Notes under the pieces: model-generated
Told to the model about the DNA's origin: nothing
Databases searched by the model: none
The model's input: only the letters and a program-made list of their open reading frames with translations
Program-made: the position numbers and the translations under genes
Part shown: positions 4,600 through 29,214 of the stretch, piece by piece
Numbering within the stretch: the first letter of the stretch is position 1
Layout: every line of letters starts with the position of its first letter
From: Kiritimatiella glycovorans
Lineage (GTDB): Bacteria; Verrucomicrobiota; Kiritimatiellia; Kiritimatiellales; Kiritimatiellaceae
DNA: 32,000 nucleotides
Assembly: GCF_001017655.1 (NCBI RefSeq)
Contig: NZ_CP010904.1
Span: 120,001-152,000, forward strand
Direction of reading: 5' to 3'

Positions 4600-5235
4600 A
4601 TGCCAAAGATACTCCCTTTCGAACGGGAACCCCGGCGGTATGACCGGTGGTTCGATGATCACGACGCCGCCTACCGCTCCGAGCTGGCCGCGATCCGGGA
4701 ACTCCTTCCGCCGCGCCCGGGACGGGCGCTGGAGATCGGAAGCGGGACCGGACGCTTTGCACTCCCGCTGGGTATCCGGGAAGGCGTGGAGCCCTCGCCG
4801 GCCATGCGACGAAGGTCCGCCGCGCGCGGCCTGCACGCGATCGACGGCGTCGCGGAAGCGCTCCCGTTCGACGACGCCCGGTTCGATCTTGTCCTTATGG
4901 TGACGACGATCTGTTTCGTGGACGATGCCGCGCAGAGCTGCCGGGAGGCGGCGAGGGTCTTGCATCCCGGAGGACGGTTCATCGTCGGTCTGGTCGACCG
5001 CGACAGTTTTCTCGGCGAGTCCTACGAGGCTCGAAGAAAGGAAAGCGTGTTCTACCGTGACGCGCGCTTCTTCAGCGCGGCGGAGGTCGTCGATTTTATG
5101 AAGGATGCCGGGATGCGGGAGTTCCGGTTCCGGCAGACCCTCTTCAGCATGCCGGCAGAACTCGCCGGTCCCGATTCGATCCGTGAAGGATACGGGGAGG
5201 GAGGGTTTGCGGCGATTTCGGGGGAAAGGGGTTAA
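4600..5235 (+). CDS. Class I SAM-dependent methyltransferase (type 11-like)
   Basis: ALEIGSGTGRFA (motif I), FDLVLMVTTICFVDD, LHPGGRFIVG. Confidence 0.85.
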   Translation: MPKILPFEREPRRYDRWFDDHDAAYRSELAAIRELLPPRPGRALEIGSGTGRFALPLGIREGVEPSPAMRRRSAARGLHAIDGVAEALPFDDARFDLVLMVTTICFVDDAAQSCREAARVLHPGGRFIVGLVDRDSFLGESYEARRKESVFYRDARFFSAAEVVDFMKDAGMREFRFRQTLFSMPAELAGPDSIREGYGEGGFAAISGERG

Positions 5236-5263
5236 TCGGGATTCACCACAGACCACAGAAAAC

Positions 5264-5827
5264 ATGATACGATCCGTGAGACTCTGTTTTGCTCATTCGC
5301 TGCAGGTGAAGGGCGCGCGCACGATTGAATTTTCGGGCGGAATGAATGTCGTGGCCGGACCCAACGGGTCCGGGAAGAGCACGCTTCTCCGCGCCCTCAA
5401 CACCTGCGAACGCTGCGAAATCCGACGCGCCGGCGGTGCCCCGGTCAGGTATTTCAGCGCGGAGACGATGAACCCGCATCACCCGACGGGGCCCGCCGGG
5501 GATATGCAGGAGATGATCCTGCGGGTGCGCGGCGTCTTTACCTCGCATGGCGAGATTATGAGATCGGCCCTCGCCGCCGTCCCGCTGAGAGAGGGTGAGA
5601 CCCTGCTCGTCGACGAACCGGAGGCCGGTCAGGACCTGGAAGGCGTGAAGAGGATACGGGAGGCTTTCGATGTCCTTTGTGCGAGGGGAGGACAGGTCAT
5701 CGCCGCGACCCACCACCCGGTGCTGATGGAGGGTGTGAAAGTCATCGAACTCGTGCCGGGGTATGTCGGGCGTATGCGGGCGGAGTGCCGTCGCTGGCTG
5801 GGAGAGGATGCGGATCGCTCATCCTGA
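5264..5827 (+). CDS. Small (187 aa) ABC-type/AAA P-loop ATPase
   Basis: Internal ATG at 5264. Motifs: GPNGSGKSTLLRAL (Walker A), TSHGE (signature-like), LLVDEPEAGQD (Walker B), IAATHH (H-loop). Confidence 0.6.
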   Translation: MIRSVRLCFAHSLQVKGARTIEFSGGMNVVAGPNGSGKSTLLRALNTCERCEIRRAGGAPVRYFSAETMNPHHPTGPAGDMQEMILRVRGVFTSHGEIMRSALAAVPLREGETLLVDEPEAGQDLEGVKRIREAFDVLCARGGQVIAATHHPVLMEGVKVIELVPGYVGRMRAECRRWLGEDADRSS

Positions 5828-5873: not shown

Positions 5874-6328
5874 CGTATTCGTACTCGTACTCGGTACACG
5901 TACTCGGACCGCCGAAGGCGCGATCCCACTCCCCCGGTTCAAGGAACTCGAGTACGAATTATGTTCTCTCTGAATCCCGATTTCGACCTCGATCCGAATT
6001 TCGAGATCCCCTCCGTGTCATCGGTCGAAAACACAAGAAAGGTCTCTCGCAAAGGCGCCGGGATCGCAAAGATGAATGAGAAGAGCACAGGCAAAGAAAT
6101 GGTGCGTTCTCTCTTACGTTCGTAGTAGCGCCGCAGGCCTGCGAAGCAGGGCCAGGGCCGTGATCTTCACGCGCCTGGCCTGCCGGAGGCAGGCTTGCGG
6201 CGCTACTACGAACGATATCACGCGCCTTGGCCCTTCGGACGCGTGCGGCGCTACTACGAACGTTTGTCGTCTCCCATCCCGCCTCTTCCCCGAACGGCTC
6301 CACCGCAAAAATCTGCGAAGAACCCGGC
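5874..6328. repeat. Structured intergenic repeat element, left copy, inverted relative to 9764-10149
   Basis: By-eye alignment with the reverse complement of 9764-10149 shows only scattered mismatches over about 300 bp (6022-6328). There is a further match in the (GTACTC)n-rich outer part, and the left copy carries roughly 90 bp of extra sequence. Confidence 0.8.
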
Positions 6329-14425: not shown

Positions 14426-15634
14426 GGTAGGTTGTAAACCCAAATGCCGCATGTAGTGGTCTTGTTTCATTTATGAGATCGTTTTGAGTTCGTTCGTGAA
14501 GAGTTCGTGAGGGGTCATGAAGTCGAGGATCCGGCGCGGGTAGTTATTGATCCATAGCTCGATGTCGCGGATTTTCTGCTTGGTAAAGCGCGCGATATCC
14601 CGGCCCTTGGCCACGAACCGTCTGATCATCCTGTTGCCGTTCTCGTTCGATCCGCGTTCCCAGGATGAGTATGGGTGGGCGTAGAAGATCTGGGTTCGCT
14701 GTTGCTTCGAGAAGGAAGAGGCTTCTAAGGCTTCGAAGTCCAGGAACTCGCTGCCGTTGTCGACCGTGATGGTCTTGAAGATCTGACGGAAGCAGCGGGA
14801 GCCATGTTCACGCTCGAGCCCTCTGAGAACTTTGAGCACGCTGGCTTGGCTCTTATCAGGCAGCTTGCGAATGATCGTGATCCGATGTCTGCGTTCCACC
14901 AGGGTCAATAGGGCGGCATTGGACCCGCGCGTGGGGCCGGTCACCAGGTCCATCTCCCAGTGTCCGAACTCCTCGCGCGTCTCGGCTCCTTCGGGACGCT
15001 GGTCGATGCTTTTGCCTTTGGAAATCCGCTTCGCCAACCGCCGAGCGCCGCGTTTGCGCCGCTTGGCTCGCTTACGCTTCTCCCACAGTGACTCGTTGCT
15101 GAGCCCGAAAATGACGCCTTTATCGATGTAGTTATAGATCGTCTTGGTGCACACCACCTCCTCCAGACCGGCCTGACGCATCCGAAAGGCGACTACATCG
15201 GGCGATTCCTTATGTTCCACAATGCGGCAACGGATGAATTCGGCCAGCGCATAGTTGCGGCCCAGCCTCAGACCGGGCCCCCTTGCGGTGGCGTGGTAAT
15301 CATGGAGGTCCTGGCCGCGATCGCTGCTGTAGGTCCGGTATTCCCGCCACTCCGAGTCCCGGTGGGTCACCGTCCCGCGCTTGAGCTCACGCTGGATCGT
15401 ACGCGGGTGACGCTCCAAGGCGGCCGCGATGTCCCGTGGGGGGATCCCCCCACGGGACATCCGCTCAATCACCATGCGCTCCACCCTCGTCAAGTGCTTG
15501 CCCTTCCTGCTATTCTGATTCTGTTCCATGCCGTCTCCTTCCTCTGTTGTCCTGTTGTAAGACCACAAAGGATAGCGAACCACGGCATGGAACGCTCTCT
15601 CCTATACCTGCGGCATTTCACATTACACTTCTCA
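14426..15634 (-). mobile_element. IS30-family insertion sequence
   Basis: A single IS30-type transposase ORF. Imperfect terminal inverted repeats share the core TGTAA-n5-AAATGCCGCA-n-GTA, starting at 14433 and, reverse-complemented, at 15627. The 15-bp direct repeat TTTATCTCATTTTCT lies at 14411-14425 and 15635-15649. Confidence 0.85.
14471..15529 (-). CDS. IS30-family transposase
   Basis: ATG at 15529 after GGAAGGAG. N-terminal HTH region (LTRVERMVIERMSRGG..., RTIQRELKRG) and DDE core (GHWEMDLV, ITVDNGSEF, HPYSSWERGSNENGNRMIRRF). Confidence 0.9.
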   Translation of the reverse strand: MEQNQNSRKGKHLTRVERMVIERMSRGGIPPRDIAAALERHPRTIQRELKRGTVTHRDSEWREYRTYSSDRGQDLHDYHATARGPGLRLGRNYALAEFIRCRIVEHKESPDVVAFRMRQAGLEEVVCTKTIYNYIDKGVIFGLSNESLWEKRKRAKRRKRGARRLAKRISKGKSIDQRPEGAETREEFGHWEMDLVTGPTRGSNAALLTLVERRHRITIIRKLPDKSQASVLKVLRGLEREHGSRCFRQIFKTITVDNGSEFLDFEALEASSFSKQQRTQIFYAHPYSSWERGSNENGNRMIRRFVAKGRDIARFTKQKIRDIELWINNYPRRILDFMTPHELFTNELKTIS

Positions 15635-24120: not shown

Positions 24121-27100
24121 CTAAAAGTCAATATCGAAGAGATAGAATACCCCCTGGTCACTACCGTCTGCGCCTGCGCCCTGCATTACGCCAAACCGGC
24201 TTCCAGGATGCGCCACCAGAAAAGCCGGTATTGCTGCCCACGCACGGAAGAGAGGGGGACGTTCAGAGAAATCAGGTCCTGGACTGCGCAAAGGAGCAAC
24301 GAAGGATCGTAGTATCAATCTGGCGTCGGCCCTCCTCACATTTTGAGGGCTTTTAGCTCCGGCAAGCTCCCTGTCATGCATCAGATACGTAACATCGAGC
24401 CAGTTCCTGACCGGCGCGCCCTGTGGATAGCCAATGGCATCAGGCCCAATGTTCTCGGGGCGCATTCCGCTTTGGCCGGCACGCCGGTAGTAGCCGACCA
24501 TATTGGCGCCCCCATAGGGACCATACCAAATACGACTGGGGATGAAGTATTCCCACCATCTTGGCGTATCTTGTCCTGAATCGCACAGCCCGAACGGGTC
24601 AGTACCATTCACCGGATCATTCCCGCAGAACACATACTGGTTCAACCCGCCGTTGATCCCGATGGGATCTTTACTGAGGAATCTCCCTGTGACGGGGTCA
24701 TACCACCGCGCGCGGAATTGATAGAGGCCGTAGCCGCCGGTGGTTTCGTGCAGAGCCCAGTCGTACTCGCGCCCCTGCCAGAGGTAGCGGTTCGCGAGCG
24801 CGGAGCGGGTCAGCTCCTCGCCGTCGGCCTGGCGCACGGCCTCGACCCGCCCCCAGGCGTTGTACTCGTACGACTCGGCCACCGCGCCGGTCTCGTCGAG
24901 CAGCGCGTGGACGGTGCCCTGCGGGTCGGTGAGCGCGTAGTACGTGTTTGTCGCCCCGGACTCGTAGTCGGTGAACGAGAGCAGCCGGTCGATTTCCGGG
25001 GCCCATACATACGTGCGGCGCAGCGTCCCGCTCTCGTCGATCTCGGCGACGACCTGTTCGCCGTCGTAGATGTAATGAACCGTGTTGGTCGCCCCGGAAG
25101 TTCTCACCTCGCGGCGGGTCCGGCGCCCGTCGAGATCGTACTCGTGTTCGATCTCCAGCCCGCCGAGCGTGACGGAGGTGAGCCGGTAGCGGCCGTCCCA
25201 CCGAAGTTCCGCATCCCAATCGGCCGCGTGGCCGCGGCAGGTGATGTTCGTCACGCAGCCCGCGGCGTCGTACCCGTACTGCGCGTTGGTCACCACCCCC
25301 AGCACCAGCGTATGGGTCGCGTAGCCCATGTTCCCCGCCGCGTCGCGGATCGCCGCCGTGACCTCCTGCGTCGACCAGCCCACCACGAAGTCCTCGGCGC
25401 GAAATACCGCCCCGCTGACCTCCGGTGTGACGCACGAGACGGCGTTGCTGATCTGAAGATACCCGAACGCGCCGTTCGTACCGATCGGTTCGGAGGAACT
25501 CCCGAGCACGTCGAACGTGCGCAGCGAGGCGAAGTCATTGGAAGACGTCGCCGTCCACGCCGCGAGCCGATTGCCCGCGCCGCGGGTATAGTCCACGGTC
25601 CAGTCCCCGCCGCGCTTCGAGGTGCGGTTCCCGGCGGCGTCGTAGCGGTAGGTCATGGTGTTTTCGCCGCGCGTCCCGGTCCGGAGCCGCTCGAGCGCGT
25701 CGTAGGCATACGACGCGCGGTTCGTCGTCGCCGCAGTCCGGATGACGCGCGAGGTGATCATGCCTGCGGCATCATAGCCGTACTTGATCTCGAGCGCAAC
25801 GGTGCTCCCGGCGTGCCAGAGCAGATTTGTCACGCGATCCATCACGTCGCAGTGCCGACTCATCCAGACGCCCGCGTTCGTCGCGCTGATCGACGCGAGT
25901 CGGCCGTGGGTCGGGTCGTAGGCCAGCGTCCAGTCCGATCCCGGTCCGGAGAGCGCGTCCACCCGCTCCGCCGCGTCAATGCCCCAGGAGTAGAGGAGGT
26001 TCGTTCCCGCGCAGCTCACCTGCGCGTTCGTCCGGTTTCCCGCAGGATCGTACCCGTACGCGAGACTCCAGTCCTCGCCCGGCCGGTCGACCTCGCGTCC
26101 GATGAGCCGCCCCGCGCCGTCGTAGCGGTTCGACACCGAGCCCGTCGCATCGCCGGCCGTGCGCAGGAGGCCGTTCGAGGCATAGGTGTAGATATTCGTC
26201 GCGTCCGGGTAGCGCGCCTCCGAACGCCGCCCGTCCCGGTCATAATCGTAGCCGACCTCCGTACCGTCGAAACGGGTGATCGCCAGGACGTAGTCGCCCA
26301 CCCCGTTTGAGACGCTCATCTGCTGGCCTTCCAGGTTGGTGACCTCTTCCACGCGTCCCTGCAGATCGAGCCGGTAGGTCTCCACCGCCCGGTCCAGCCG
26401 GTCGGTGATCGAGAGCGTATGAAAGAGCGGGTCATAGGCGTAGCGGATGGTGAGATTCGTCCCGTTGCACACCCGGCCGATCTCGCGAACCTTCCCGGTC
26501 GGGTACCAGCGGGTCGTCGTCACCCGCCCCGCGCGGTCCACATGATTCGTCACCCGTCCGTGCGCGTCGCGGGCGAACTGCTCGCCGGTCCCGTCGGGAT
26601 AGCGCACCTCCAGCACGCGGCCGAGCGCATCCACCCGGTTGCTCGCCAGACACACGCCGCCGCGTTCGGTGCGCACGAGATGGCCCAGCTCGTTATAGGC
26701 GAAGCTCAGCGCCGGTCCCGCCTGCGGCACCGACGAGGTGCGAAAGCCGCTCGCGTCGTAGTAATGCCGCGTCCAGTGCCCGTTGGCGTTGGTCACCGCC
26801 GCCAGCAGACCGTGGGTGGTGTACGCCAGGCGCGTCTCTGTGGTTCGGTTGGTGGCGGGGAACGTACGGATCGCCGCGACCAGGCCGTTCGTGTAATCGA
26901 ACTCCGTGCGCAGGCCCGAGGCATCGGTGAGGACCTGCAGGAGGTTATGGGTATCGTACGTCATCGACTCGAAACAGCGCGGGTCTGTGCCGTAGCCGGT
27001 TCCGCGCAGGGTGCGGTTGTTCCGCGCGTCGTACTGCGACCAGGTGCGGATGAAGAGGTTGGTGTCCGCCGCGTACCGGGTCTCGTTGGTCGTGTTGCCC

Positions 27101-28680
27101 GCGAGGTCGTGATCAAAGCGGACCGAGGGTCCTCCCTCCGCCGGGTCGGCAAAGGGCCCGTGCTGTTCGATGATCTGCCCGAAGAACGGCTCGTAGTAAT
27201 ACAGATTGGTGACGGTCACGTCGCCCAGGTTGTAGGCGATCGCCGTGACCGGATCCTCCGGTCGCGCGCCCGCCTCGTAGTCGACCTGGTGGGCGTACCA
27301 CTGATCGTTGATCGAGAGGGACGTACCTCTGGCCGGCGGAAGGTTGGTGGTATAGCCGTAGCGATAGACATGGCCGAGTCCGTCCACGCGCTGCGTGATC
27401 ACACCCGCGCCGTCCGCCGCGCAGTCGTAGGTTCGTGTCAGGGCCGCGCCCTCCCCGGTGCGTTCGCTGCGACGGAGCTGCCCTGAGGCGGTGTATTCGC
27501 AGGAGACCGCGAGATTCGTCGAAAGCGTCGCGCTGCGCAACAGGCCGTTCGAATAACTCAGATTCAGGCTCTTCCCCGCCGGATGGCTCACCTCGATCAG
27601 CCGCTCCCCCGCGGGCAGATTCGTATAGCTCAGATCGATCTGCGGGCCCGAGAGCCGCCGGATATGGTCCAGTCGCCCTTCCCCGTTAAAGGCGTACTCC
27701 AGGTCCGGGGGGACGCTGAGCGTATAGCCGTTCGTTGCGTTGCCGCAGAGTGTCCAGTTCAGTCCTTTCGCGGGTTCGAATCCGCCGCTGCCGTCGGGGT
27801 GAAACGTATGGATTTTGCCCGTGCCGGTGCGAACCCGCATCACCTCCGCGGTCACACTGCCGTGCACGGTCTGAGCCCTATCCGCCGACCAGTCGTAGCG
27901 GTGCGTCCAGCACCGGCCCAGCGCGCCCGTCTCCGCGAGCGTGCTATGGTAGTGCCGGGTGAATTCCAGCGGCAGGCCGGGCAGCGGCGCGGAGAGGTCC
28001 CGTTCCTTAAAGAACAGATCGCCCGTGGTGCCGCTGATCGGCTCCTCCGAAAAGCCCTTCGGATCGCCCAGCGTAATCTCCGGCTCCGCCGGCGGCGGGA
28101 GGTCGAACGTGCCGTCGCCGGAGAGCTGCAGGGTAATCTCGTATTCGCAGTGCTTCGGCCCCTTATGGGGTGGGCAGGGCAGCGGATTACGTTCCGTCAC
28201 CGTGAGGTAACCGCTGGTCCGGCCGGTGTACCCCGGGATGCCGGTCGTCGGATTCCCGCCGTCCCAGTCCGGCAGGGAGGGAACTCCGCGGTGCACGTTG
28301 TTATCCGGAAGCTCCCAGCGATGATTGTTACCCCGGTTGTTCGATGCGGTGTGCGTGTAGCGGTAGCCGTCTTCGACCCCCTCTACAAGCTCCCCGCCGC
28401 GTGCGTTGTTCCCGTGATTCGGCAGCCAAAGATCCAGGCGGTTGGTGGGACAGTGGTGGAAGTCCACCGTGAAATGGAGGGTAACCGTATCCGAGCCGAG
28501 GTAATGACAGAGACTGCTGTCGCGGTACCCGTAAATATTCCGGTTTCCGTAATACGGCGCGTCACGATAGGGGTCCGTATAGTTTCTTGCCGGGGCCGAT
28601 TCCGGGCACGGCGTATTGAGAAGCGCGCATTCCACCATCAGGGCCACGGGTTTCACCGGAACGTATTTTCGCTTCATCAT
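24121..28680 (-). CDS. RHS/YD-repeat polymorphic toxin (1519 aa)
   Basis: Dozens of YD-type repeats (e.g. YRYDAAGNRTS, YGYDPAGNRT, YDYDRDGRRSE). RHS core end: RARWYDPVTGRFLSKDPIGINGGLNQYVFCGNDPVNGTDPFGL. RBS GGGGAGTAAGGA before ATGATG at 28680. Confidence 0.95.
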   Translation of the reverse strand: MMKRKYVPVKPVALMVECALLNTPCPESAPARNYTDPYRDAPYYGNRNIYGYRDSSLCHYLGSDTVTLHFTVDFHHCPTNRLDLWLPNHGNNARGGELVEGVEDGYRYTHTASNNRGNNHRWELPDNNVHRGVPSLPDWDGGNPTTGIPGYTGRTSGYLTVTERNPLPCPPHKGPKHCEYEITLQLSGDGTFDLPPPAEPEITLGDPKGFSEEPISGTTGDLFFKERDLSAPLPGLPLEFTRHYHSTLAETGALGRCWTHRYDWSADRAQTVHGSVTAEVMRVRTGTGKIHTFHPDGSGGFEPAKGLNWTLCGNATNGYTLSVPPDLEYAFNGEGRLDHIRRLSGPQIDLSYTNLPAGERLIEVSHPAGKSLNLSYSNGLLRSATLSTNLAVSCEYTASGQLRRSERTGEGAALTRTYDCAADGAGVITQRVDGLGHVYRYGYTTNLPPARGTSLSINDQWYAHQVDYEAGARPEDPVTAIAYNLGDVTVTNLYYYEPFFGQIIEQHGPFADPAEGGPSVRFDHDLAGNTTNETRYAADTNLFIRTWSQYDARNNRTLRGTGYGTDPRCFESMTYDTHNLLQVLTDASGLRTEFDYTNGLVAAIRTFPATNRTTETRLAYTTHGLLAAVTNANGHWTRHYYDASGFRTSSVPQAGPALSFAYNELGHLVRTERGGVCLASNRVDALGRVLEVRYPDGTGEQFARDAHGRVTNHVDRAGRVTTTRWYPTGKVREIGRVCNGTNLTIRYAYDPLFHTLSITDRLDRAVETYRLDLQGRVEEVTNLEGQQMSVSNGVGDYVLAITRFDGTEVGYDYDRDGRRSEARYPDATNIYTYASNGLLRTAGDATGSVSNRYDGAGRLIGREVDRPGEDWSLAYGYDPAGNRTNAQVSCAGTNLLYSWGIDAAERVDALSGPGSDWTLAYDPTHGRLASISATNAGVWMSRHCDVMDRVTNLLWHAGSTVALEIKYGYDAAGMITSRVIRTAATTNRASYAYDALERLRTGTRGENTMTYRYDAAGNRTSKRGGDWTVDYTRGAGNRLAAWTATSSNDFASLRTFDVLGSSSEPIGTNGAFGYLQISNAVSCVTPEVSGAVFRAEDFVVGWSTQEVTAAIRDAAGNMGYATHTLVLGVVTNAQYGYDAAGCVTNITCRGHAADWDAELRWDGRYRLTSVTLGGLEIEHEYDLDGRRTRREVRTSGATNTVHYIYDGEQVVAEIDESGTLRRTYVWAPEIDRLLSFTDYESGATNTYYALTDPQGTVHALLDETGAVAESYEYNAWGRVEAVRQADGEELTRSALANRYLWQGREYDWALHETTGGYGLYQFRARWYDPVTGRFLSKDPIGINGGLNQYVFCGNDPVNGTDPFGLCDSGQDTPRWWEYFIPSRIWYGPYGGANMVGYYRRAGQSGMRPENIGPDAIGYPQGAPVRNWLDVTYLMHDRELAGAKSPQNVRRADARLILRSFVAPLRSPGPDFSERPPLFRAWAAIPAFLVAHPGSRFGVMQGAGADGSDQGVFYLFDIDF
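24124..24585 (-). other. C-terminal toxin tip (154 aa after the DPFGL cleavage motif), family unassigned
   Basis: CDSGQDTPRWWEYFIPSRIWYGPYGGANMV...APVRNWLDVTYLMHDRELAG...FYLFDIDF. The DNA is visibly AT-richer than the RHS core. Confidence 0.6.
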
Positions 28681-28695
28681 AATCCTTACTCCCCT

Positions 28696-29214
28696 TCATG
28701 GTTGGCGGATATAGACGGCGTTGTCTGCCGGGGCATGAATCGTAACAAGCGGGGAGACGGCGTCCGCATTACAGGGGTCCGTCCGCCGCCCGTAGAGTTC
28801 CTCGCCGTCGTCGAGCCCGTCTCCGTCCGTATCCGTCCGGGAAGCCGCCGTCCCGTAAAGATAAACCTCCCGGCCGTCGGGAACGAGGTCGGCATCCGCA
28901 TCGGCATCCCATAACGCCGCCGCGTAGAATACGGCTTCGCCGGGGTCGGCGAAGTGGACGCGGGCGATGCGCGCCGTACCCCCCAGCGGCAGCCTTTCGC
29001 CGTCCAGGCACCAGCTCTGGAGATCCCGGCTCACAAAGAGGTCGCAGGGTTCGAGGTCCGGCGCCGGGGAACGCAGAACCGTCCGGACGCTGCCGTCCGC
29101 GCGTGGATAAACCTCGATCGCGAGCTTCGTGACCGCTTCGCAGCCGGCTCCCTGCGCGACGCCCCCCACGAGCCACGGACCGGCGACGGCAGCGAAAAGT
29201 GAAAGGGGTTTCAT
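28696..29214 (-). CDS. Secreted protein with a thrombospondin-type-3-like Ca-binding repeat; first gene of the RHS operon
   Basis: ATG at 29214 after GGGAGG. MKPLSLFAAVAGPWLVGGVAQGAGC signal, TDTDGDGLDDGEELYGRRTDPCNADA. The stop lies 15 nt before the RHS start. Confidence 0.7.
   Translation of the reverse strand: MKPLSLFAAVAGPWLVGGVAQGAGCEAVTKLAIEVYPRADGSVRTVLRSPAPDLEPCDLFVSRDLQSWCLDGERLPLGGTARIARVHFADPGEAVFYAAALWDADADADLVPDGREVYLYGTAASRTDTDGDGLDDGEELYGRRTDPCNADAVSPLVTIHAPADNAVYIRQP

Follow-up and report, generated by a model that had tools for sequence, protein, structure and literature searches.

What does the C-terminal tip of the Rhs polymorphic toxin of Kiritimatiella glycovorans do, and how did it come to be joined to its present core? 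The question is raised by a 32,000-nucleotide (nt) stretch of the genome (contig NZ_CP010904.1, positions 120,001 to 152,000 of the forward strand; hereafter the window), in which a minus-strand gene at 24121..28680 encodes an Rhs protein of 1519 amino acids (aa). The first-pass annotation of this DNA had described an Rhs toxin with an intact PxxxxDPxGL core end, a compositional break such as replacement of tip and immunity gene by recombination would leave, and a tip faintly resembling phospholipases A2 (PLA2). Our best explanation of the locus combines the Rhs gene, serial import of toxin/immunity cassettes and a tip that would act on the cell envelope, most likely by PLA2-like chemistry; taken as a whole, we consider this account evenly poised between being right and being wrong. 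Rhs proteins with exchangeable tips are a textbook system; the toxin and immunity families found here are new and extremely rare.

The toxin gene itself (4560 nt, defined by its open reading frame and translation) is straightforward to classify. Its product is identical to a database protein of K. glycovorans (AKJ63427.1 / WP_052880855.1, "RHS repeat-associated core domain-containing protein"). Searches with Pfam and NCBIfam place DUF6531 at aa 213-277, followed by a shell of RHS repeats in 13 stretches (PF05593, E=1.4e-22; TIGR01643 is matched as well) and by the Rhs_assc_core module TIGR03696 at aa 1273-1365 (NCBIfam, E=2e-18). The core terminates with ...GNDPVNGTDPFGL, in which PVNGTDPFGL (aa 1356-1365) fits the PxxxxDPxGL pattern, and RWYDPVTGRFLSKDP is also found upstream. 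Translation and coordinates thus place the core end, RARWYDPVTGRFLSKDPIGINGGLNQYVFCGNDPVNGTDPFGL, at 24586..24714 on the minus strand, where it carries both Asp-Pro motifs of the C-terminal autoprotease, and the Rhs assignment with its intact core end stands. Because the last codon of DPFGL (aa 1361-1365) ends at nt 24586, the toxin tip comprises the 154 residues from aa 1366 to 1519 (24124..24585, minus strand), with its stop codon at 24121-23. By analogy with published Rhs and Tc structures, the protein is predicted to cleave itself after Leu1365. Neither a second Rhs core end nor a further full tip was found within the 32-kb window.

In its architecture the locus resembles the Rhs/YD-repeat polymorphic toxins with orphan tip-immunity cassettes described for enterobacterial Rhs proteins and the Tc-toxin TcC (Zhang et al. 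2012, PMC3482391). Like them, it combines a DUF6531 plug with RHS repeats and an Rhs_assc_core that ends in PxxxxDPxGL, followed by a variable tip of lower GC content (guanine plus cytosine) and then by an immunity gene; relics of displaced cassettes lie downstream, and related loci contain orphan tips that keep about 30 codons of the core end. Unlike the known systems, it belongs to an anaerobe of the Kiritimatiellota, within the Planctomycetes-Verrucomicrobia-Chlamydiae (PVC) group, with no PAAR, VgrG or known delivery marker nearby; furthermore, all three successive cassettes derive from one toxin family, and the arrays end in a Y1 transposase in all three loci that carry the tip.

The origin of the tip can be read from the composition of the DNA. 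In 200-nt windows the GC content falls from 0.70-0.71 at 24700-24999 to 0.535 at 24500-24699, and GC at third codon positions (GC3) drops from 0.86 in the Rhs core to 0.54 past the break. A maximum-likelihood single change point, run separately on the two measures, falls at codon 1354 (nt ~24621) by GC3 and at nt 24685 by total GC. The switch to AT-rich sequence that the first-pass annotation had placed at about 24700 is therefore borne out both by the sliding-window plot and by the change point at nt 24685. Its further claim, that the break coincides with the core/tip junction, is right as to a real and large break and has to be corrected as to its place, since the change lies 35-100 nt upstream of the cleavage motif, within the last 12-33 codons of the core. 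The AT-rich codons (AGA TTC CTC AGT AAA GAT) start at GRFLSKDP, and the orphan cassettes in two related metagenomic loci, L002 and L008, begin their core homology at the same point (W/F-LS-N/K-DPIGI). This is where the left junction is expected if cassettes are exchanged through homologous recombination within the conserved end of the core, and we mark the interval 24621..24685, supported by GC3 and total GC, as the left recombination junction of the imported cassette. The low-GC island extends to about 21800: its GC content is 0.523 (21800-24685), as against 0.663 in the core and 0.641 in the rest of the window. A low-GC import of 2.9 kb takes in the last ~33 core codons, the tip and all the DNA that follows as far as a dead IS200-like transposase gene. 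In the direction of transcription, the order is core / core end, tip1 and imm1 / stump2, frameshifted imm2 and a repeat / stump3, frameshifted imm3, a repeat, the Y1 transposase remnant and an inverted repeat.

The DNA downstream of the tip argues for replacement more strongly than the first-pass annotation had done, because it holds the stumps of two earlier tips together with their decayed immunity genes. The intact cassette comprises the tip and, 22 nt after its end, imm1 (23652..24098, minus strand), which encodes a lipoprotein of 148 aa with a signal peptide and the lipobox LLAAGC. Next to it lies stump2 (23554..23652, minus strand), the 3' end of an older tip, recognized by translation and by Smith-Waterman alignment: its last 33 residues, ...LVGHLTGRQVVVRPGAGRDQTDTAVFVFFESEF*, score 56 against the C-terminus of tip1, a value reached by none of 1000 shuffles. 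The stump2 stop codon stands 21 nt before the ATG of imm2, mirroring the layout of tip1 and imm1. The imm2 gene (23066..23532, minus strand) is an immunity paralogue 39% identical to imm1, found by tblastn as pieces in two frames with one frameshift near 23431. The pattern is repeated once more. Stump3 (22916..22975, minus strand), likewise identified by translation and Smith-Waterman alignment, is the 3' end of a third tip with ~20 residues, ...ARISGDDPGAAIFILHDYSF*; it scores 43 against the C-terminus of the related tip P0004, again with 0/1000 shuffles reaching the score, and its stop codon is 15 nt before the ATG of imm3. This last paralogue (22413..22900, minus strand; tblastn and alignment) has one frameshift near 22622. 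Identity of imm2 and imm3 to imm1 is 30-39%. The apparent spacers before imm2 and imm3 thus encode tip C-termini, each ending in Phe and a stop codon. Either imm2 and imm3 are real pseudogenes, or their frameshifts stem from errors of sequencing in the genome as deposited.

Since each of the two older, same-family stumps precedes a frameshifted immunity paralogue of its own, the replacement was serial. The locus would have been invaded at least three times by alleles of one toxin family; each incoming cassette would have recombined in the conserved core end and displaced the previous tip, leaving behind the last 20-33 codons of the old tip and its immunity gene, both older copies of which are now frameshifted. 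The stumps and frameshifts are seen directly in the DNA, a fossil record in which at least three cassettes follow one another, and from them we infer the order of events. The data support the import of the tip together with its antidote, and the proposed replacement by recombination has held up, both through the two same-family stumps with decayed immunity genes and through cassette homology that starts at the break.

The tip belongs to a very small family. Neither its sequence nor the family profile matched anything at E <= 10 in Pfam, NCBIfam, PHROGs or PDB sequences, in agreement with the earlier remark that it was not recognised as any common nuclease, deaminase or ADP-ribosyltransferase (ART) module. 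A word-indexed search of 5.8 billion clusters returned a single fragment of 97 aa, a profile search added the protein P0003, and an exhaustive HMMER search of 1.84 billion cluster representatives yielded 4 proteins including the query, i.e., three relatives. These are P0003, an orphan tip of 237 aa from wastewater and other metagenomes (46% identity to the K. glycovorans tip), P0004, the C-terminus of an Rhs protein of 1430 aa (47% identity), and the 97-aa fragment. Among 185,579 species genomes there was no relative of the tip and none of the immunity protein, and no tip relative was found in IMG/VR viral contigs, phage genomes or plasmids. Among metagenome contigs, a scan recovered L008 alone, which is the full-length locus of P0004. 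The fragment L074, a short contig (NCBI GCA_015665585.1, 342 nt), shows 88% DNA identity over tip codons 25-68, beyond which, immediately ahead of the His-Asp codons, it passes into unrelated DNA of high GC content; because of this switch we regard it as a truncated remnant or an assembly chimera. In the published literature we found no description of this tip family, nor of bacterial toxins with a parvovirus-type PLA2.

A MAFFT alignment of the three full members (44-46% identity) contains 45 invariant positions. In the N-terminal third these include W10, P16, Y24, G26, M29-V-G-Y-Y33, G37-Q38, G40, P43 and I46-G47-P48; they are followed by G56, W62, D64, H70-D71, L74-A75, S79, R84, A86 and L90, and then by A97-P98, R100, P102, R109, L112, W116, I119-P120, F122, A125-H126-P127, R130, G138 and three C-terminal Phe residues. 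The conserved core, aa 29-100 (24286..24501, minus strand, from the alignment), is the candidate PLA2-like catalytic region, with the segments MVGYY, GQxG, IGP and P..W.D, the pair His70-Asp71 (codons 24373-24378) and Ala86-Asp87. The extreme C-terminus (aa 145-154, 24124-24153) shows aromatic or hydrophobic residues alternating with acidic ones and always a final Phe, also in the stumps. The five sequences of the three tips and two stumps, VFYLFDIDF, FTFFELGF, VFIFFDIDF, VFVFFESEF and IFILHDYSF, faintly recall the C-terminal signal of outer-membrane beta-barrels.

Where would such a tip act? The gene that accompanies it gives an indication. A homologue of imm1 lies directly downstream of the tip in both loci with intact relatives (L002 and L008), so that the pair of tip and lipoprotein gene is kept in all three tip-carrying loci, the arrangement of an Rhs tip with its immunity gene. 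The lipoboxes of the five immunity homologues (LLAAGC, LLSGC, ASCGC, FSQSC and FMCSC, judged by visual comparison with the PROSITE PS51257 pattern) share an invariant Cys; the homologous lipoproteins end with ...GRWELKRVWGTPL or ...GTWKIEIGVASPL, and that of the window with ...GKWEFKHVLGTPL. Searches with imm1 gave no match in Pfam or PDB, and the immunity profile had only chance matches in PDB. The imm1 product is a candidate for the cognate immunity protein, as had been suggested from its position, and the earlier suggestion gains from the same gene following the tip in L002 and L008 and from the lipobox Cys in all five homologues. Because the conserved partner is a lipoprotein, the tip would attack the envelope of the target cell from the periplasmic side and not from within the cytoplasm, and the lipoprotein would block it in sibling cells, the protection being that of established Rhs biology.

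The contrary reading is that the tip acts in the cytoplasm, as a nuclease, NADase or similar enzyme; the lipoprotein would then either have no part in immunity to it or protect in a different way. Cytoplasmic enzymes do make up the majority of the characterised Rhs tips, and the tip has no assigned fold. Yet no gene other than that of the lipoprotein stays with the tip throughout, in the three loci as well as in the two decayed cassettes, and the nuclease, deaminase and ART families are matched neither in the sequence searches nor among the fold matches. We therefore consider action in the cytoplasm highly improbable, and return to the envelope.

PLA2 chemistry is already in use in systems of this kind, since a PLA2 domain has been recorded at the end of RHS toxins: Tox-PLA2 (fold of PDB 1kp4, PF09056), with the motifs DxC[ST] and CxxHxxxYxN and a further Cys, ends both RHS and filamentous toxins (PMC3482391). 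The present tip was compared with this 1kp4-type domain and rejected as a member, as its family lacks conserved Cys residues, the two motifs and any PF09056 match. The first-pass annotation had pointed instead to the parvovirus-type and secreted enzymes, on account of WYGPYGG and APVRNWLDVTYLMHDRE. The defining motifs of the parvovirus PLA2 are HDxxY and a GxG/YxGxG calcium loop (PMC7765992, PMC10267136). In the tip, APVRNWLDVTYLMHDRE corresponds to aa 57-73, with W62, D64, H70 and D71 invariant; the catalytic His-Asp dyad of the parvovirus-type enzyme is thus present in all three full members. An Asp occupies the position His-6, as in parvoviruses, and a Pro precedes it, at Asp-5 in two members and at Asp-6 in K. 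glycovorans; because of this offset by one, the proline column is not invariant, though all three members have the residue. An Ala-Asp pair stands at His+16/+17, with a spacing identical to that in densovirus PLA2 (HDEAYDKAKTSQEVSQAD vs HDRELAGAKSPQNVRRAD). The overall pattern of the tip, P-x4/5-D-x5-HD-x14-AD, agrees with the densovirus spacing.

Zadori and colleagues reportedly found, in 2001, that mutations of His41, Asp42 and Asp63 in porcine parvovirus (PPV) abolish activity, and the supporting Asp on the next helix (the "AD" motif) is Asp63 of that virus. His70 of the tip would serve as general base and Asp71 would bind calcium, with Asp87 on the following antiparallel helix supporting His70.

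Quantitative comparisons were made with a set drawn from 65 PLA2-encoding loci fetched from IMG/VR, of which 45 domains were used, and with a densovirus subset of six sequences of ~6 kb. Profile-profile alignment (hhalign) of the tip family with the 45 domains placed tip residues 58-94 on P-x-N-x-x-D...HD...AD with P 0.077 (14/200 shuffles reached the score), and with the densovirus subset it aligned P..D..HD..AD with P 0.049 (3/200 shuffles). The best Smith-Waterman scores against the 45 domains were 62 for P0003 (1/400 shuffles), 53 for K. glycovorans (6/400) and 43 for P0004 (92/400), while reversed PLA2 sequences reached at best 35-36, against 43-62 in the forward direction. In all three optimal forward alignments the HD of the tip fell on the HD of the PLA2. 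The targeted tests span nominal p-values of ~0.003-0.07, and Smith-Waterman is nominally significant for two of the three tips; these nominal values overstate the evidence for PLA2, because several related tests were run.

Structure prediction points, weakly, the same way. A single-sequence AlphaFold2 (AF2) model was useless, with a predicted local distance difference test score (pLDDT) of 42, and the four-sequence alignment raised the mean pLDDT to 61, with a predicted template modelling score (pTM) of 0.61. This model has helices at tip residues 62-75 (bearing the HD), 80-99 and 112-125, with pLDDT 72-84 across residues 61-120; the HD helix is followed by an antiparallel helix. In a Foldseek search against PDB no match fell below E = 1, and the 47 weak matches included four chains of rice secretory PLA2, each over ~107 columns. 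Against BFVD the best E-value was 0.24, with one match at a probability of 0.66. Of the 38 named matches among the top 50, 31 are either structural proteins of parvoviruses or densoviruses, which carry the PLA2 domain of the VP1 unique region, or proteins annotated with a PLA2 domain; these last belong to a Vibrio phage, a baculovirus and an ambidensovirus. BFVD consists mostly of phage proteins, a composition far from this enrichment, to which no probability can be attached because the matches are not independent. The structural check proposed earlier returned mainly PLA2-bearing proteins of parvoviruses and densoviruses and the rice enzyme, with a best E-value of 0.24, and no confident match to another fold.

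A considerable body of observations weighs against the PLA2 assignment and the account built around it. The Tyr of HDxxY is replaced by Leu in all three tips (HDREL, HDQDL, HDRNL), and of the Ala-Asp pair only A86 is invariant, as P0003 has His where the other two members have Asp87. At ~20 residues from HD, where the calcium loop normally sits, no canonical YxGxG is seen. There are loop candidates, none of them canonical (I46-G47-P48, 22 residues before HD; G37-Q-x-G40; and Y24-x-G26, 46 before HD), and the pairwise alignments of the three tips disagree on its register, which is IGP, GQxG or a deletion. WYGPYGG, which had suggested the family at the outset, is tip aa 20-26, with only Y24 and G26 invariant among the three full members; it keeps only Y-x-G, 46 residues away from HD. 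An initial, shallow PLA2 alignment (adeno-associated virus 2, minute virus of mice, PPV and B19) gave a score that 139/300 column shuffles reached, and with a profile hidden Markov model (HMM) of the 45 PLA2 domains, run with filters off, the tips scored -2.5 to -2.9 bits, inside the shuffle null. No Pfam PLA2 family, PF08398 among them, matched any tip member at E <= 10. None of the matches is significant by convention (Foldseek E >= 0.24, hhalign probability <= 1.1%), and the model was built on only 4 sequences, with its mean pLDDT of 61. Neither PAAR, VgrG nor another secretion marker was found in the window. In addition, a tblastn search with densovirus PLA2 against phage genomes, seeking bacterial or phage intermediates, gave no match. 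Of the PLA2-like pattern described in the first-pass annotation, the invariant HD has therefore survived, while WYGPYGG is conserved only in part, the Tyr of HDxxY is missing and no canonical YxGxG loop is seen.

Could these signals be due to chance, the tip family having a function not yet described? Each match is sub-threshold, HMMER and Pfam see nothing, and the model is of moderate confidence. On the other hand, independent weak signals converge on the same family and on the same catalytic residues, and we consider coincidence improbable. The tip shares with the PLA2 of the VP1 unique region (VP1u) of parvoviruses and densoviruses (PF08398) the lack of disulfides, the invariant helix-borne HD, the helix-helix-helix order, Pro and Asp at -11/-12 and -6 from His, Ala-Asp at +16/+17 as in densoviruses, and the best fold-search matches. 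It differs from that domain in escaping the Pfam model, in lacking the canonical YxGxG loop and the Tyr after HD, in having a hairpin region added at the N-terminus and ~50 more residues at the C-terminus, and in being a bacterial toxin with a lipoprotein antidote rather than a capsid domain. That the tip acts by PLA2-like catalysis falls, in our estimate, slightly short of an even chance. The more specific proposal, that the disulfide-free HD PLA2 otherwise known from parvovirus and densovirus capsids has in this family a bacterial branch used against bacteria, delivered by Rhs and neutralised by a lipoprotein, is more tentative, and we put it forward as a possibility with the larger chance against it.

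Other lipid-directed enzymes were considered in the same light. The lipase effectors Tle1-5 of the type VI secretion system, reportedly described with their periplasmic Tli immunity proteins by Russell and colleagues in 2013, share with the proposed action of the tip the attack on phospholipids from the periplasm and an adjacent gene for a periplasmic or lipoprotein immunity protein. Tle1-4 use GxSxG and Tle5 uses HxKxxxxD. On inspection of the tip alignment neither motif is present (K. glycovorans has GQSGM, and its homologues have no Ser there), and a Tle identity was rejected.

The tip could also be another kind of all-alpha enzyme aimed at lipids, for instance a soluble domain of the Lipocone type, which would cut phosphate-linked head groups (of lipid II or undecaprenyl carriers, or of phospholipids) with His70 in the second core helix. 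Lipocone toxins are known tips of polymorphic toxins, and the proteins that confer immunity to them are all either lipoproteins or membrane proteins (PMC12419801). The likeness to Lipocone tips such as Min-Wnt, prok-SAA, TelC and CapCone (PMC12419801) extends to a small, all-alpha, soluble toxin domain with a His in a core helix, a lipid target and a lipoprotein or membrane immunity protein; the predicted short helix, beta-hairpin and three long helices of the tip, with His in the first long helix and Asp/His in the next, loosely resemble CapCone/ClaspCone. Unlike those domains, the tip lacks the defining Asp of the last (fourth) core helix, and residues 109-132 contain no D, E or N in any member. 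Moreover, TelC, SAA and Wnt are not among the 47 PDB matches of Foldseek, where PLA2 is, and no Lipocone-related Pfam family (e.g., DUF4056) was matched. Such a different lipid-directed enzyme, of the Lipocone type or another, is in our view unlikely.

We assign a similarly low probability to a tip that is not an enzyme at all and that would insert into the membrane through its hydrophobic C-terminal part (LFRAWAAIPAFLVAHPG ... VFYLFDIDF), or engage an envelope machine such as BAM through a Phe-ending strand like those of outer-membrane proteins. Here the conserved hydrophobic segment at aa 112-127, the alternating aromatic C-terminus with its final Phe in three tips and both stumps, and an immunity protein that is a lipoprotein would all fit. 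The strictly invariant polar residues D64, H70, D71, R84, R100, R109 and H126, however, resemble an active site and not a pore former, the hydrophobic stretch is short (~16 residues, with an Arg and a His), there is no glycine-zipper motif, and the reading comes from inspection alone.

On the PLA2-like reading, then, the toxin would work as follows. The repeat shell would enclose the C-terminal tip, and the aspartyl autoprotease of the core end would cut after DPFGL(1365), as in the published Rhs and Tc structures. Acting on the target envelope from its periplasmic side, the tip would be a disulfide-free, calcium-assisted hydrolase of the parvovirus/densovirus PLA2-like type, cutting the sn-2 acyl chains of membrane phospholipids and so permeabilising the target.

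The distal end of the island carries further elements that may bear on the mobility of the cassettes. A truncated IS200-like Y1 transposase of 124 aa is encoded at 21968..22342 on the minus strand (Pfam Y1_Tnp, E=5e-8), and each of the three tip-carrying loci closes its toxin/immunity array with an IS200-like Y1 transposase gene. That of L002 (1596-2606) is full length, with 336 aa, and is likewise flanked by inverted repeats of 29-31 nt (1518-1548 / 2615-2685); the copy of L008 is at 6068-6304. A repeat search in the window identified a 49-nt direct repeat after imm2 (23008..23056, plus strand), containing the 22-nt motif AATGACGCAATGTGCGGCCTTT, and a second copy between imm3 and the transposase gene (22359..22407, plus strand). 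An inverted copy of the 22-nt motif (21815..21836, minus strand) brackets the transposase remnant together with 22386-22407. The motif, an imperfect hairpin, thus has 3 copies in the window, all inside the island, where 0 are expected by chance. The bracketing of the remnant by inverted copies resembles the layout of IS200 elements or of repetitive extragenic palindromes with their associated transposases (REP/RAYT). That the transposase and the hairpin-like repeats, which also follow imm2 and imm3, take part in capturing or moving the toxin/immunity cassettes is an idea to which we give little credence.

A tyrosine recombinase gene (Phage_integrase) lies immediately upstream of the orphan tip P0003 in L001 (992-2029) and L003 (1216-2253), an arrangement suggesting that a site-specific recombinase accompanies or switches some of the cassettes. 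Downstream of the set of Rhs, tip and immunity genes in L008, positions 5030-5761 hold a second orphan cassette, consisting of ~30 core-end codons and a different tip of 150 aa without a Pfam match.

Upstream of the Rhs gene, and ending 13 nt before its start, a gene at 28696..29214 (minus strand) encodes a secreted protein of 172 aa with a bacterial TSP3 repeat, the C-terminus of which resembles the start of an immunoglobulin (Ig)-like domain. The Rhs protein itself has no obvious signal peptide. The TSP3 protein, the sole candidate of this sort in the window, may be an export or anchoring partner of the Rhs protein, or its split-off N-terminus. A similar secreted TSP3-repeat protein is encoded after the array in L002 (2622-3323). 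An IS30-like transposase gene (HTH_38 and integrase core) is found at 14471-15583 on the minus strand, ~9 kb from the Rhs locus, where the local GC content of 0.58-0.59 is slightly lower.

The locus adds to the repertoire of polymorphic toxins in two respects. The tip and its lipoprotein partner form an unnamed family without a solved structure, represented by about four sequences among roughly 15 billion proteins. The history of replacement is unusually clear, with three generations of one toxin family in a row, two of them reduced to a C-terminal stump and a frameshifted antidote. If the PLA2-like reading is true, the tip would represent a third, independent-looking PLA2 lineage in bacterial warfare and a plausible bacterial relative of the enzyme that parvoviruses use for entry, and a viral PLA2 domain of obscure origin would be tied to the bacterial pool of polymorphic toxins.

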